NCBI GenBank assembly: GCA_951406725.2
Contig: OX597824.1
Coordinates: 12,834,001-12,898,000, forward strand
DNA from: Octopus vulgaris
Lineage: Eukaryota
DNA: 64,000 nt
Direction: 5' to 3'
Below are positions 30,501 through 58,410 of the stretch, piece after piece. The translations under genes were made by a program, and so were the position numbers. How positions within the stretch are numbered: position 1 is the first letter of the stretch; every line of letters starts with the position of its first letter. The notes under the pieces were generated by a model. That model had not been told where the DNA came from. It saw only the letters and a list, made by a program, of their open reading frames with translations, and did no database searches.

Positions 30501-33500
30501 ACAATATATTCACTGGGTAATCTGTAAAAACCTGGATTTGCCCCATGAAAAAAACTGGTGGGAACACAAACCACCCCCAGTGCTTGAAAATGACCACATC
30601 TCACTCCTCTGGAACTTCACCATTCAAACTGACAGGAAGATAGATGCAAATAGGCCAGACATCATATTGAAAAACTTCAAACAAAGAACATGCCTCCTCA
30701 TTGATATGACTGTCCCAATCGATATAAACGTATCTGTCAAGACCTACCAAAAACTGAGCAAATATAAAGATCTTGAAATAGAAATCAGCAAAATGTGGAA
30801 GCTGAAGACTAAAACAATACCTGTTGTCATAGGTGCCCTGGGAATGATAGCAAAAGGGGCTGATAGCTACCTAACTCAGATACCAGGAAACCCAAAAATG
30901 GCAGAAGTTCAAAAGATAGTGCTCATGGGAACTGCTCATATCCTACGCAAAATACTCTCTATGTAATCTCAAGGTTTAAAACAAACATAATTTTCGGTTT
31001 AAAAAAAAAAAAAAAAAAAAAAAAAAAAAAACCTTTTTTTTTTTTTTTTTTTTTTATTTTTAGACATTCATTAGTACAACATCCCCACCCCAAATATATG
31101 GCACACTAGGCATAACAACAACATGAACTTCCAACCCTGTTGTCTCTTGAGGTCTCTGGGTGAGACTTGGAGCCAACTTGTACAAATATAAAGCAAAAGT
31201 CAAACATAGAATAATAATAATAATAATAATAATAATAAATTATTATTATTATTATTATTATTAATATCATCATCACCATTATTTACACAAACCGATAGAA
31301 TAAGTACTGGGACTACAAAGAATAAGTCCTGGGGTTGATTTGTTCGACTAAAAGTGATGCTGCAGAATGGCCGCAGTCAACAGACTGAAACAAGTAAAAG
31401 AACAAAAGAATACACAGAACTTTCATTTCACTTCATATGTGGAGATTTTTACCTCCATATCATTGGAACACGGATTCATTTTTCTTTATTTTTCCTCTGT
31501 TACAAACCCATTTTCTTATTATTCGTCACCAGTCTTCTTTCAAAACAAAAACTTGGCATTATATACAAAATTCGGTTTTTAAAAATACAATTTAAAAAGC
31601 ATCCCGTGTCGGTGGCACGTAAAAAGCACCATCCGAATCGTAGCCGAAGCCAGTGCCGCTTCGACTGGCTTCCATAAAATGCACCATCCGAATTGTGGCC
31701 GATGCCAGCGCCGCCTCGACTGGCTTCCGTGTCGGTGGCACGTAAAAAGCACCATCCGAATCGTAGCCGAATCCAGTGCCGCCTCGACTGGCTTCCATAA
31801 AATGCACCAATTCGACCGTGGCCGATTCCAGCCTCGCCTGGCACCAGTGCAGGTGGCACGTAAAAAGCACCCACTACACTCACGGAGTGGTTGGCGTTAG
31901 GAAGGGCATCCAGCTGTAGAAACGTTGCCAGATAAGACCGGAGCCTGGTGCAGCCTTCTGGCTTTCCAGATCCCCGGTCGAACCGTCCAACCCATGCTAG
32001 CATGGAGAACGGACGTTAAACGATGATGATGATGATGATGATGATGATGAATTCATCTTATAGCTTGCTTACCAATGGGAGCAATTCTGTGGACCTCCAA
32101 AAGAGTTGCTGCAACGTATGTCATGCTTCGTTTGTCTTCCATTGTGACAGGCCTGCTCATATTTGTGATCTGAAATTGAAAATTCATGACAACAGACTTA
32201 TCCATGTGTTTCTCGGTCCATATGCGTGCATATAAGTGCGTGTGTGTGTTTGTGAGCGATAGAGAGCAAGTAAAAGAGAGAGAGTAAGTAAAAAAAGAGA
32301 GAGTAAGTAACAGAGAGAGGGAGAAAGAGAGAGAGAGAGAGAGAGAGAGAGAGAGAGAGAGAGAGAGAGAGTGTATGTCAGCTCTCAGATCACAAGTTAC
32401 AAAAATATTTGGGCTAACACGTTCCAGAGATAAGAATTAATATCAAGAACACAATTCGTGGAAACACTAACCGCTAAATCTTCTGGCATCCTATCAAATT
32501 CTTTGAAGGGAAAACAAAGCGTATAATAATAAAGAAATTTGAGATAACTTACTTGTTTGATTTCTTCCCGACACCTGTTCTGCATATCAGGATATTTGGC
32601 CATATAGAGAAAGGCCCAGGTAAGATATAATGCAACTGTGTCGGTTCCTGCCGTAAACATATCGAGGATCGCACGGAACATGTTTGAGCCTAAGATTGCA
32701 CAAATAATAGTTAGACTCAATCAACCTAATAATTTTGTATAATTGTATTAAAAACAACCCCCGCCAAAAAAAAAAAAAACCGTTAGATTCACTTCAACAT
32801 CTAAATTTAATTTGTCAAAATATTTTCGTCGCTTTGAAACCGCGACCTGTTCACTGACAAAATTCCGTGCGCGAAAATATTTTGACAAATTAAATTTAGA
32901 TGTTGAAGTGAATGTATTTTTAAATGGCTTATAAACACCTTCCACGCTGCAATTGTTTGTGTTTCAGCACATGCTCTCAGATCAAGTCACTTGCTATGCA
33001 AGTACTCCACAATATATATATATATATATATATATATATATATATATATATATATATATATATATATATATATATATATATATATATATATATATATATA
33101 TATATATATATATATATATATGTATATATATATATATAGATAAGAACTTTAGACTGCAAGAACTCAAAAACACCCTAATTGACAGACATTACCCAGCTCA
33201 ACTCATAGAGGATGGGATCAGACGTGCAACAGAAATCAACATAGAAACTTTAAGAAAAGTTCAACACAACAACACACCTTCCCCGAAAATACTACCTTAC
33301 ATATCTACATACAACCCCAGAAACAAAGAAGCCTTCACCATCATCACCCAGAATTTACCAATACTTCATAAAAACCCAAAATTAAAGGAAATTCTAAACA
33401 TACACCAAATCATTAAAAGCTACAAACAGCCTAAATCACTTAAAAAGATTCTCACAAAGGCAAAATTGTCTTCTAAAATTACGGATGCAAAAGTAAAAAA

Positions 33501-36500
33501 ATGTGGTAGATCGAACTGTGCAACATGTCCTAACCTATTGGAAGGATCAGAATTCTTCTTTAAAGAGGGACAGAAATTTAAGATCAAATCTAACTTTACT
33601 TGTGCCTCTGAAAACATAATTTATGTTATTAAATGCTCGGGCTGCCACCAAGACTACGTGGGTTCCACGGGACTATCACTCAGGCGCAGATGCACACTGC
33701 ATCGACAACAGATTGCATTCCCAGAATATAGAATGATACCTTTTAGTGAGCACATTGAGAAATGCGCAAAGCAACTACTGCCACAATTTTTAATCTTCCC
33801 ATTTTACCAATGTGCTTTCGGATCATCAACACAAATGAGACTGAACAAGGAAACATTCTTCATTGAAAAGTACAAACCCAGACTCAACCATCCGAACATA
33901 CTGACACAGAGAAATTAACAAGGAAGTGGGAAAAAAAAAAAAAAAAATTTTTAAGCGATTATCTCCCCTACACCGGAAAAAATCACTCACTACCTCCCCT
34001 TATTTAGAAATCTCCTGGAAATAAAAACAACGATAATTCCATGCAATATAAACATAACGTCACAAGAAATTTGAAAAGCTACACGCGAAACCGGTAATTT
34101 CTTTAAAAATTTTAAAATTATGTCATTTTAAGGAAAGGAAAAAAAATTTTTCCAATATTCTCCAGACATTTTGACACAAATATATATATTTTTTAACATT
34201 TAAGCCTTCTGTCGTTTTTTCACACTTTACTATTTTCTTATATATATATATATATATATATATATATATATATATATATATATATATATATATATATATA
34301 TATATATATATATATATATATATATATTATATATATATATATTTTATATATATATATATATATATATATATATATATATATATATATATATATATATATA
34401 TATATATATATATATATATATATATATATATATATATATATATATATATGTATATATAGTTACGAGCAGATCTTCGAAAGCGATGAGAAGCCGAAAGGGT
34501 ATGTTCTTACTTTCAGTGTTTTCAAATCCAAACCAAGGAGTTTCTGAGCTGATGATAGAAGTGTCGTATTGACTAATCTTGAAACGTACGTTCTCAAATA
34601 ACCTTTGCATTTGATTTTTTGATGTCCTTACCCCCAAACTTTTGTGAGTTGAGTTAAGCAAACACTATATGAGAGAGATTTTCTTTAAGTATTAGAAATA
34701 GCTTTAAAAAAGTTTTTTAGCTGCTATTTCTAATGAGTTCAGTATGCGGCAAAGTAATTTATTTTACTAAGCCCTTTTATATAATATATATGTATATATA
34801 TATATATATATATATATATATATATATATATATATATATATATATATATATATATATATATATATATATATATATATATATATATATATATATATATATA
34901 TATATATATATATATATATATATATATATATATATATATATATATATATATATATATATATATATATATGCAATACAAAACCCTGAAAATATTGCGCATC
35001 TGCAACATGAGCTGGACACAATATACAGGTGGGCTGAGGACAACAACATGCAGTTTAATGCAGGTAAGTTCCAGGCCCTGCGTTACTGGCACACAAAGGT
35101 AAATGACGTGAAGACTGGATACACTGGCCCAGGAAGAATTGCAATCCCTGAGTCAAAATCAGTGCGTGACCTGGGCATTGACATGAGCAATGATGCATCT
35201 TTCCAAATGCATATTGCTAATCTGGTGATAAAATGCAGACGGCTAGCTGGATGGATTCTCCGAACTTTCAGAACAAGAGAGAAGGAGACACTGATGGTCC
35301 TATGGAAAACATTTGTCCTCAGCCGCTTGGACTACTGCTCCCAACTTTGGTCACCACACAATATAAAACAAACAGCAGAACTCGAAGCAACTCAGAGAAG
35401 CTACACAAAGAAAATCGTCTCAATGCAAAATGTCAGCTACTGGGAAAGACTGAAGGTATTAAACCTCTTCTCCCTGGAGCGGAGGCGGGAGAGATATGCA
35501 GTGATATACATCTGGAAAATCCTGGAGGGTCTTGTCCCAAACTTTGGCATTCAAAGTTACTCCAACCGCAGAACGGGCGCCGCTGCGTGGTGCCAAGGAT
35601 TCCAACATCACCATCAAAATACAGGTCCAGATACTGCAACAGCTTGGGTTTCAGAGGACCACAGCTCTTTAACATCCTCCCTAAATGCCTGAGAGACTTA
35701 CATGGTGTGGATGTGGGTTTCTTTAAAACTAAACTGGATCTCTTCTTGTTGGGAGTCCCAGATGAACCTACCTCACGACAGGAGACACGGATGCGGGCAG
35801 CAGCATCGAACTCCCTTGTTGATCAAGTGCCACGTATCAGAGGTGGATTCACAAACTAGTGTAGCTCATTCAGCGGTGGTGCCCCAGCATGGCCGCGGCC
35901 TTCGGGCTAAAACATTTTTAAGGATTTAAGGATTTAAGGATATATATATATAGGTTCCCTGCTTGTGTCCTGAAGGTGTGTCGACACCAACTTGCATCTC
36001 CCCTTGCTAATCTGTGGAGAAACTCACTGGATGCTGGCTATATTCCAAAAAACCTTCTGTCCCAGTCTGTTGTCCCAGTTTTCAAAAAGGGAAACAAGTC
36101 CCTTGCAGTGAATTACCGTCCGATCTCACTCACCTCTCATATCATCAAGGTATTTGAGAGGGTGGTGAGATCTCGAATAACCCAATTTCTGGAAAGCAAC
36201 AGACGGCTGATCTCCAACCAACATGGGTTCCGTAATGGAAGGGACTGCCTAACGCAGCTCCTGCATCACTTTGAGGACATTTTGAGAGCTTTGGGAGAGG
36301 GCTCCAACACCGATGTCATCTACCTTGATTTCAGTAAGGCCTTCGACAGGGTCGATCACAAGATCCTATTGAAAAAACTATCCAACATTGGTGTCTCTGG
36401 AAAGTTACTGAAATGGATTAAGTGTTTCCTGACAGACAGATCTCAACATGTTGTAGTTGAAGGGGTAAAATCAAGCCCAGCCAAAGTCAGTAGTGGCGTT

Positions 36501-57936: not shown

Positions 57937-58410
57937 AGAGACAGAAACACCCACAACTTCATCAACTCCGAACGGTATTAACTCAACCAAGCCATAAAAT
58001 ATTAAATATTATACTTAGTATTTCTATTCATAATCAACAAACTTTCCATATTACGGACTACACGTGTTTCATGAGGGTACGTATGGTATTATTAAGACAC
58101 AAAGTCTCATTCAAAAACTCATTATGTTCACGCACTCCCAATCGTCAGGTCTATTTTCCCTACATTTATAAATATAACTACTCCTTATATATCACTATGT
58201 TTGTCAAAATTAATTACAAGTATATAAGTATAAATAAGTAAATAAATAAATTAATGAACCTTATAAATTTAAGACATAAGAATTTTACACGCGCAGTCCG
58301 TAATATGGAAAATTTGGGGATTGTGAATAGAAATAGTAAGTATAATATTTAATGGCTTGGTTGAATTAATACCGTTCGGAGTTGATGAAGTTGTGCGTGT
58401 TTCTATCTCT
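57937..58410. repeat. ~125-bp inverted repeat enclosing a hammerhead motif
   Basis: Arms ~57937-58066 and ~58287-58410. Confidence 0.8.
58056..58151 (-). ncRNA. Type I hammerhead ribozyme motif, canonical core
   Basis: GAC-CUGACGA-(11-bp imperfect stem II, long loop)-GAAA-CACGUG-UA-GUC; palindromic helix III. Confidence 0.6.

Follow-up and report, generated by a model that had tools for sequence, protein, structure and literature searches.

The 64,000-nucleotide stretch of Octopus vulgaris DNA analysed here (contig OX597824.1, positions 12,834,001 to 12,898,000; the window) raises the question of whether hammerhead-type motifs with different base pairs at core positions 3 and 8 mark distinct families of Penelope elements (PLEs), and of what keeps those pairs. 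We consider it probable that these motifs belong to PLE pseudo-LTRs, with one Watson-Crick 3:8 pair per family kept by likely selection on a likely catalytic fold whose predicted activity is slow, assisted self-cutting. All six motifs listed by a sequence-only reading of the window were found at their positions and with the cores described, four on the minus strand (58056-58151, 56054-56096, 32811-32861, and 55759-55809) and two on the plus strand (34064-34103 and 55829-55879). The motifs contain the core N3-UGA-N-N8-A9 ... GAAA ... U-H alongside helices I and II, and helix III is palindromic in each of the six motifs chosen for folding, an A:U one among them. The earlier description of stems I and II, GAAA, and a tiny palindromic helix III generally holds, except that stem II of the 58056 family starts with U·U (10.1-11.1); another core exception is C9 in a family represented at 39516.

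A structural scan of the window required helix III to be palindromic and placed no constraint on positions 3 and 8. The nine matches comprised five of the six listed motifs, a C3:G8 motif at 34545-34596, and three weak ones; the 58056 motif was missed because its stem II opens with the U·U mismatch. The C3:G8 motif at 34545-34596 adds to the original six, and so does another C3:G8 motif at 39516-39560, the latter with C at position 9. Four window matches had stems I and II totalling at least 9 bp, compared with a mean of 0.225 in 40 block shuffles. The Rfam hammerhead models gave no match at E<=10 in 55630-58300 or 32700-34700, and no hammerhead appeared among the 150 of 169 whole-window Rfam matches listed. 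A rival reading takes the non-canonical motifs for accidental resemblances within AT-rich palindromic repeats, selected for their fit; it would agree with this silence of Rfam and with the readiness of loose patterns to match shuffled sequence (mean 2.35 per 64 kb, 35% of them Watson-Crick at 3:8). We regard this explanation as extremely improbable, because the non-canonical motifs occupy a pseudo-LTR position homologous to that of canonical C3:G8 motifs, and because the free-3/8 scan or protein homology, and not pairing, brought out another four families (A:U, two short U:A, and a C:G sister). It is largely refuted by the sister-family alignment and its controls described below.

Five of the six motifs lie in pseudo-LTRs of PLEs with an RT/GIY-YIG ORF, in agreement with the proposed Penelope tails; the 58056 family is PLE-like, with no ORF found within 1.5 kb in its 13 other loci. 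A Pfam scan of the tail peptides returned no families. A young two-ORF PLE is represented by its 3' part at 33142..34245 (+), in which an ORF with a Cys linker and GIY-YIG ends at 33918, followed by the pseudo-LTR with the motif at 34064..34103 (U3:A8, 2-bp stem II, a strong 6-nt helix III palindrome, A17). The C3:G8 motif at 34545..34596 (+) sits in a separate insertion; it is missing downstream of the other U:A-element copies examined, and pairing it with 34064 as two hammerheads of one element was rejected. The PLE at 38794..39675 (+), the 3' part of a young single-ORF element of ~1,310 aa that is a sister of the G3:C8 family, carries the motif at 39516..39560 (+), which is new relative to the earlier list. 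An older PLE is represented by its 3' part at 56007..57847 (-), which contains a Cys linker and a frameshifted GIY-YIG, a 102-bp tandem repeat, and a pseudo-LTR with the U3:A8 motif at 56054..56096 (-), whose palindrome is perfect family-wide and has one G·U change in the window copy. The PLE-like repeat at 57935..58285 (-) holds the C3:G8 motif with the long stem II and is followed at 58287..58452 (+) by the truncated inverted arm that belongs to this insertion.

The G3:C8 family is represented by the following insertions. The first is a short copy with an inverted arm at 32767..32870 (-), which holds the motif at 32811-32861 (stem I of 7 bp, an extra G, stem II of 5 bp, U17), and a direct arm at 32872..33010 (+), which is 5'-truncated within the motif and extends as far as the long tail end, which precedes (TA)n. 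In the second, the direct arm at 55622..55817 (-) carries the motif at 55759-55809 followed by 29 codons from the start of the PLE ORF (ATG at 55709), and the inverted arm at 55817..55958 (+) contains the G3:C8 motif at 55829-55879, with G·U at 10.1-11.1 in this copy, and finishes at the short tail end. The third is a decayed copy at 8296..8491 (+), in which the 5' half of the motif is no longer recognisable. The motifs at 55759 and 55829 do not make up a tandem dimer, since they are two opposite-strand arms of a single insertion. Such inverted arms in the window are by-products of insertion, and they would form double-stranded RNA rather than working dimers.

The elements fall into two distant PLE lineages with ORF identity of 21-28%, one with two ORFs (U:A and A:U families) and the other with a single ORF of ~1,250-1,310 aa (C:G, U:A, and G:C families). 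A CX2-5CxxC linker before GIY-YIG was seen in translations of both lineages, and the elements show the PLE hallmarks of pseudo-LTRs, inverted 5'-truncated arms, alternative tail ends, and (TA)n targets. In a tree of this genome's elements alone, monophyly of lineage II had support of 100/100, while the deep branches are unsupported and join long branches. The motif occurs both upstream of the ORF start and past the ORF end, and full-length copies with a motif at both ends were found for U:A (L092, L094, and L098) and G:C (L335). The second ORF of L094 matches RVT_1 (E 2.8e-7), with a weak GIY-YIG match. The G:C motif lies in the PLE pseudo-LTR in L335, L333, and L337; the L333 ORF has a GIY-YIG match at E 1.8e-5, above the cut-off, visible RT motifs, and a BLASTP match to L094 ORF2 (E 1e-8), and a Pfam RT match to it was not found. 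Thirty short loci had suggested that the G3:C8 family is purely non-autonomous and SINE-like, which was rejected by the copies joined to an ORF.

Each family has fixed a single pair. U:A was present in 48/48 strict matches of the 34064 family and in 14/14 loci of the 56054 family, for which the PLE pseudo-LTR location was also seen. C3:G8 was kept in 13 of the 14 loci of the 58056 family, including the window copy, and the U·U mismatch in stem II is family-wide. The G3:C8 family has 6,905 pattern matches genome-wide, with G:C in 95 of the first 100 listed. In addition, we found an A:U family that the earlier reading did not contain (389 matches, A:U in 98 of the first 100 listed), with the motif ~300 nt past the ORF end. 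The proposal that different families are fixed for different 3:8 pairs is therefore borne out for C:G, U:A, and G:C in the families first noted, and A:U is a fourth pair.

Dead copies within a family vary independently at the two positions, and the signal sits between homologous families, so that independent variation across genomic copies is a mis-aimed test. When single-ORF sister families were aligned blind to structure, C:G, U:A, and G:C fell in one column pair. All 48/48 cells pair, with double-sided changes in 3/6 pairs (8 sequences, representing only 3 families), and slid controls gave no double change. Stem II of the three families also shows compensatory changes. The ORFs of the C:G and G:C families are 55% identical over ~800 aa, and those of the C:G, U:A, and G:C families are 34-49% identical in the N-terminal 160 aa. 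Similarly, in the two-ORF lineage, the sister families U:A (34064) and A:U, whose ORFs are 54-60% identical in the main matches, align at the core and have the 2-bp stem II and the palindrome in common, with stem I fully replaced.

Among the multi-locus families found, 13/13 are Watson-Crick at 3:8 (7 C:G, 4 U:A, 1 G:C, and 1 A:U). Re-dealing position 8 among the 13 families gave a probability of 1.9e-5 if they are independent; family counts overstate independence because the families are related, and with 3-4 independent double changes counted the value becomes 0.04-0.01. This small number of countable events would suit weak or intermittent selection, in which lineages drift through unpaired states, a few events and occasional compensation produce the pattern, and some variant motifs are dead passengers. 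The G3:C8 family could be read in the same way. Among its matches 397/6,905 lack C8, and the first 100 of these listed comprise 37 G3·G8, 42 G3·U8, 15 G3·A8, 3 U3·G8, 2 A3:U8, and 1 A3·A8, so that G3·G8 is over-represented. The G3·G8 form was found in both arms of two insertions, and several subfamily backgrounds contain it, with nearest-neighbour clustering at 0.60 against 0.50 when shuffled (16/300). A published Saccoglossus representative with U3 and G8 points the same way (PMC4209133 Fig. S3). However, none of the 13 multi-locus families is fixed for a 3·8 mismatch, and two of the changes require two transversions each. In an 880-kb sample taken at round coordinates, the 16 matches with stems I and II totalling at least 8 bp were 11 C:G, 3 U:A, 1 G:C, and 1 non-Watson-Crick; 30 shuffles averaged 0, 0.53 for the other Watson-Crick pairs together, and 0.9, respectively, which places the non-Watson-Crick matches at chance level. 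We consider weak or intermittent selection very unlikely. As for G3·G8 as an ancestral step from C:G to G:C, this was unsupported, since its copies are spread over subfamily backgrounds and show little extra divergence (median nearest distance of 0.036 against 0.024). Read on the opposite strand, the G family seemed to have C3·A8; this was rejected as an artefact of the inverted junction.

The 3-8 pair is not known to form outside the active hammerhead conformation. Within the active core it makes a tertiary contact (PMC3088659), and it has been kept here through double transversions, which points to selection on more than the helices, namely on the active fold. Selection on the active fold is thus likely; the earlier proposal of selection on folding or cleavage stands for the fold, from the covariation between homologous families, while cleavage itself is predicted. 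The element RNA would still adopt the catalytic fold, with selection on the RNA retaining the 3:8 pair, and would cut itself slowly, aided by a second copy or by the element's own protein.

Any cleavage would be slow or conditional, because the RNAs copied into the genome are mostly uncut. In the short U:A family, a sister of the G family whose 89 arms were selected by a 3' peptide, none of the arms begins at the predicted cut site (nearest: -1 once, +4 three times); 52/89 extend beyond it, and 37 reach position 3. A second set of 43 alignments, 27 of them pre-selected for having the 5' half, likewise showed no accumulation of ends where the cut is predicted. Co-folding predicted an intermolecular helix III for 4/6 motifs, including A:U. 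The helix III self-duplex was calculated at -0.2 kcal/mol for G:C and +2.2 for short U:A, and the co-fold minimum of either is not the helix III dimer; in these models, the palindromes of both families are too weak to form dimers unaided. In the predicted monomer folds, U3 pairs with A17 (34064) and G3 with U17 (G:C), which may trap the core.

These observations could also mean that the fold is retained as a signal in binding or folding, used by the RT/endonuclease protein or in transcript processing, that the RNA cuts itself little or not at all, and that 3:8 covaries by shaping the junction. The uncut main templates, the weak palindromes, and C9 in the C3:G8 sister family, which is young and has many intact ORFs of ~1,310 aa, would fit such a signal. 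So would the single 5' boundary at which G-family copies cluster, ~14 nt ahead of stem I, where an AG follows a branch-point-like, pyrimidine-rich stretch; no consistent candidate exon-1 donor was found upstream in the parental-type copies checked. Craig et al. judged hammerhead function in these PLEs unclear in the available text (PMC8557442). However, the catalytic residues (U4-G5-A6, G12-A13-A14, U16.1, and any base but G at 17) persist through stem turnover in the six folded and the three aligned families, and a related PLE hammerhead does cut, in dependence on the 3-8 pair, according to the accessible part of PMC11167929. We therefore hold a signal with little or no cutting to be rather unlikely. 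The G-family stretch is covered by contigs from eight runs (four organisms), which carry no end or strand information.

The minimal metazoan PLE hammerheads of Cervera and de la Pena (2014, PMC4209133) share with the present motifs the type I topology, the tiny palindromic helix III, a frequent extra base between 9 and 10.1, G10.1-C11.1, and the occupation of both pseudo-LTRs. U3:A8 cores were already known (PMC4209133 and the available text of PMC3088659), and those of S. mansoni families 3 and 4 (PMC4209133 Fig. S3) correspond to the two in the window. None of the 56 motifs in that figure has G3:C8 or A3:U8, in a search that fixed C3-G8 or U3-A8, whereas the octopus genome has all four pairs, three of them in sister families. 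Perreault et al. (2011, PMC3088659) also reported natural 3-8 covariation; the available portion of that paper names only U3-A8, and the octopus adds purine-3/pyrimidine-8 in high-copy retroelement families. The elements resemble the EN+ PLEs of the Neptune and Nematis clades, as described in the accessible text of PMC8557442, in the RT, CX2-5CxxC Cys linker, C-terminal GIY-YIG, pseudo-LTRs, inverted 5'-truncated arms, alternative tail ends, and (TA)n targets, but here they form two distant lineages, placed without named reference elements in the tree.

Minimal PLE hammerheads are poor cutters in vitro, and they have been viewed as possible parasites of the elements (PMC4209133, PMC8557442). 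G8C alone lowers the rate 1e5-fold (review PMC8495972). The available text of PMC11167929 reports that the double mutant C3G/G8C regained part of the cleavage that G8C loses in the PAc PLE hammerhead, which needs the element's protein, and that a lizard PLE does not require cleavage for insertion in vitro. The same swapped pair is the natural wild type of the octopus G3:C8 family, with thousands of copies, near-intact ORFs, and putative activity, unlike that engineered mutant. It is conceivable, and we suggest it tentatively, that G3:C8 and A3:U8 are the first natural high-copy hammerheads with purine-3/pyrimidine-8 (the general-acid position), that all four pairs cut, and that the swapped pairs were selected as attenuated ribozymes that set the surviving full-length RT template, with the protein switching cleavage on. 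A literature search of incomplete coverage found no natural G3:C8 or A3:U8 family.

The A:U pair is new here, and G:C and A:U lie outside the published C-G/U-A set. With the sister families, the four pairs C:G, U:A, G:C, and A:U can be tested directly in ready natural form. The repeated compensatory change in a tertiary core pair is evolutionary evidence for a selected active fold. As the sequence-only reading anticipated for a CUGANGA pattern, thousands of motifs in one genome escape CUGANGA-based searches, and the Rfam models too. PLEs described as lacking canonical hammerheads may therefore need to be re-checked with positions 3 and 8 free.

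All six hammerhead motifs described in the sequence-only reading were found in the window (G000:C11:12834001-12898000, within the 2.8-Gb assembly) at the claimed places and with the claimed cores: three with G3:C8 (32811-32861, 55759-55809, and 55829-55879), two with U3:A8 (34064-34103 and 56054-56096), and one with C3:G8 (58056-58151). The 55759 and 55829 motifs are the two arms of a single inverted insertion. The window has a GC content of 35% and abundant (TA)n. A structural scan with no constraint on positions 3 and 8, which required GAAA and U-H together with stems I and II and a palindromic helix III, gave 9 matches, compared with a mean of 2.35 in 40 block shuffles; 4 matches had stems I and II of at least 9 bp together, compared with 0.225 in the shuffles, where 35% of the chance matches were Watson-Crick at 3:8. 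The 58056 motif escaped the scan because the base of its stem II carries U·U, a feature of its whole family. Two additional C3:G8 motifs on the plus strand are located at 34545-34596, identified by the scan, and at 39516-39560, which belongs to a young C:G family and has C at core position 9. Rfam returned no hammerhead match in either motif region (55630-58300 and 32700-34700). Inverted PLE junctions at 55781-55858 and 32786-32914 score there as plant miRNA precursors, a reading that was rejected for these palindromic junctions, which fall below the gathering score. The candidate motifs resemble the PLE minimal hammerhead in structural and positional features, and are predicted to cleave like it.

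The minus strand of the window also contains cytochrome P450 exons (6998-7471, 9829-10329, 32490-32681, and 52837-53280, the 32490 piece being read by eye), suggesting a tandem CYP cluster with PLE copies in its introns or spacers. LINE-type RT ORFs, one with zf-RVT, are present at 27754-30966, 35922-37265, and 39648-41636 (+), and a Mos1-type transposase HTH at 44-454 (+).

Each family was found to carry essentially one pair at 3:8. The G-family pattern, left open at positions 3 and 8, gave 6,905 matches genome-wide and 0 in the reversed control; 95 of the first 100 listed were G:C, and the remaining 5 had one uncompensated change. U:A was present in 48/48 strict matches (39 loci) of the 34064 family and at 14/14 loci of the 56054 family, and C:G at 13/14 loci of the 58056 family. 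A fourth class, A3:U8, first met as a motif in a flank, had 389 pattern matches, and 98 of the first 100 listed were A:U. Over all loci examined, the 13 families present at no fewer than two places were all Watson-Crick at 3:8 (7 C:G, 4 U:A, 1 G:C, and 1 A:U), a count that leaves out single-place clusters, several of them non-Watson-Crick and weak. Re-dealing position 8 over these families gave 1.9e-5, assuming family independence, and the chance value was 0.04-0.01 when the 3-4 independent double changes alone were counted. Across 88 segments of 10 kb each, placed at round coordinates, the motifs with stems I and II totalling at least 8 bp were 11 C:G, 3 U:A, 1 G:C, and 1 non-Watson-Crick, compared with 0 C:G, 0.53 for all other Watson-Crick pairs, and 0.9 non-Watson-Crick in 30 shuffles. 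With the least stringent cut-off, 5/24 were non-Watson-Crick vs. 3.6 in the shuffles. Single-place motifs, comprising two U3:A8 (L172 and L244) and many C3:G8 with a long stem II, suggest families beyond those sampled.

The assignment of the motifs to PLE tails held for the families linked to ORFs. Full-length two-ORF elements (L092, L094, and L098) carry the 34064 motif in each of their pseudo-LTRs; their ORF2 contains RVT_1 and a Cys linker and gives a weak match to GIY-YIG. All 150 scored matches of the endonuclease region were 100% identical in protein, indicating that the family is young. In one element (L094:4168-7916, minus strand), a separate ORF1 of ~450 aa without a Pfam match overlaps ORF2 in a different frame. 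In several copies the 56054 motif lies downstream of a related ORF with 58% identity, and the A:U motif lies 240-380 nt past the last ORF match of a third relative. In the 5' pseudo-LTR, the distance from the motif to the downstream ORF start is 55-270 nt, and a second copy of the motif follows the ORF. The G:C family initially appeared non-autonomous, as a set of 30 loci, sampled in their order along the genome, consisted of ~200-nt copies showing inverted arms and two tail ends; copies joined to a long ORF contradict this. Its tail encodes a 31-aa peptide, whose profile matched an Octopus bimaculoides 'uncharacterized protein' (P0003, UniRef100_A0A0L8I3W9) and thereby led to copies continuing into the long ORF. 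P0003 is the N-terminus of this ORF, with up to 85% identity to the assembly over 150 aa, a match that makes an octopus the likely source of the DNA. At L335, G3:C8 motifs 4.26 kb apart flank an RT ORF; in L333, a frame of 1,025 aa includes a Cys linker and GIY-YIG (E 1.8e-5). The 58056 family had no ORF within 1.5 kb at the 13 loci besides the window's own, and it is PLE-like by structure only. Directly right of the window, L177:7400-8400 holds a single, uncounted copy of another two-ORF-lineage PLE, with a decayed tail motif resembling U3:A8 by eye. A third, distant PLE-like RT type (L277:5657-7090 and L168:8081-8765) may resemble the Hydra clade.

The proposal that different PLE families have fixed different 3:8 pairs was supported and extended to four pairs, two PLE lineages, and covariation between sister families. 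The single-ORF lineage comprises three sisters, G:C, short U:A (22,524 first-look candidates by its peptide), and young C:G with ~1,310-aa ORFs, which also carry a long Asn-rich insert. The three share 34-49% identity at their N-termini, and identity between the C:G and G:C ORFs is 55% over ~800 aa. In a structure-blind MAFFT alignment the three cores were in register, and the 3:8 columns read CG in 3 rows, GC in 3, and UA in 2. Two stem II pairs likewise change on both sides; 48/48 cells pair, and slid controls gave zero double changes. The 8 rows represent 3 families, so the shuffle counts cannot be read as probabilities. The U:A rows fall out of register in stems I and III, which were therefore excluded. 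In the two-ORF lineage, the cores of U:A (34064) and A:U align, and both families share the 2-bp stem II and the palindrome; stem I, by contrast, has been replaced throughout.

Several results count against a strict requirement for the active fold. C8 was absent in 397/6,905 G-family matches, and the first 100 of these had G in 40, U in 44, and A in 16, so that C8-to-G was about as frequent as the transition C8-to-U and ~2.5 times as frequent as C8-to-A. G8 copies were spread over subfamily backgrounds with weak clustering (0.60 vs. 0.50; 16/300 shuffles), and G8 occurred in both arms of two insertions, showing that unpaired 3·8 variants were sometimes copied. The young C:G sister has C9 instead of A9 (39516-39560 in the window; L341, L342, L344, L348, and L349), with A9 kept in two older relatives (L343 and L351).

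The 5' boundary of G-family copies lies near a single AG located ~14 nt upstream of stem I, and in parental copies this AG is preceded by a branch-point-like, pyrimidine-rich stretch (L335:1700-1725; L333, L334, and L337). The boundary A is kept in 30/37 distinct copies reaching it, 14 of which have G in front, replacing the parental pyrimidine. Either a splice acceptor or a capped start site would fit, and the extra G is compatible with a splice junction or with a base derived from the cap; a splice acceptor would be similar to the D. virilis intron described as ending at helix I (PMC4209133).

Among the 56 rows of Fig. S3 in that paper, two are U3-A8, one is U3 with G8, and none is G3:C8 or A3:U8. 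A full-text literature search, which covered running text in these spellings, found no occurrence of 'A3-U8', and 'G3-C8' solely in engineered form. Provisionally, natural G3:C8 and A3:U8 hammerhead families seem not yet to be in print.

The 3-8 pair is not known to form outside the active conformation. C3 and G8 are reported to pair in the core (PMC3088659), and G8C to reduce the rate 1e5-fold with partial rescue by C3G (PMC8495972). For a lizard PLE hammerhead, one report describes partial restoration of cleavage by C3G/G8C, a requirement for the element's own protein, and insertion in vitro that uses mainly uncut RNA as its substrate (PMC11167929). Co-folding predicted an intermolecular helix III in 4/6 motifs. 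The palindromes are too weak in the G:C (-0.2 kcal/mol) and short U:A (+2.2 kcal/mol) families, so protein help would be needed there. In monomer predictions position 3 could pair with position 17, a further result against a strict requirement for the active fold, and a G3-C17 trap has been suggested (PMC3884650); position 17 is U in the G family and A in several U3 families. In the short U:A family, 89 arms from 50 loci were picked by the 3' peptide (6/50 also by the long frame). None of the 89 begins at the predicted cut site, with BLAST ends accurate to a few bases; 52 extend beyond it and 37 reach position 3, and the absence of starts at the cut, which also counts against the cleavage reading, indicates that cut RNA is not a preferred template. 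Judged from sequence, retention of the 3:8 pair through double transversions would reflect selection on the active fold, most simply for slow, assisted self-cleavage.
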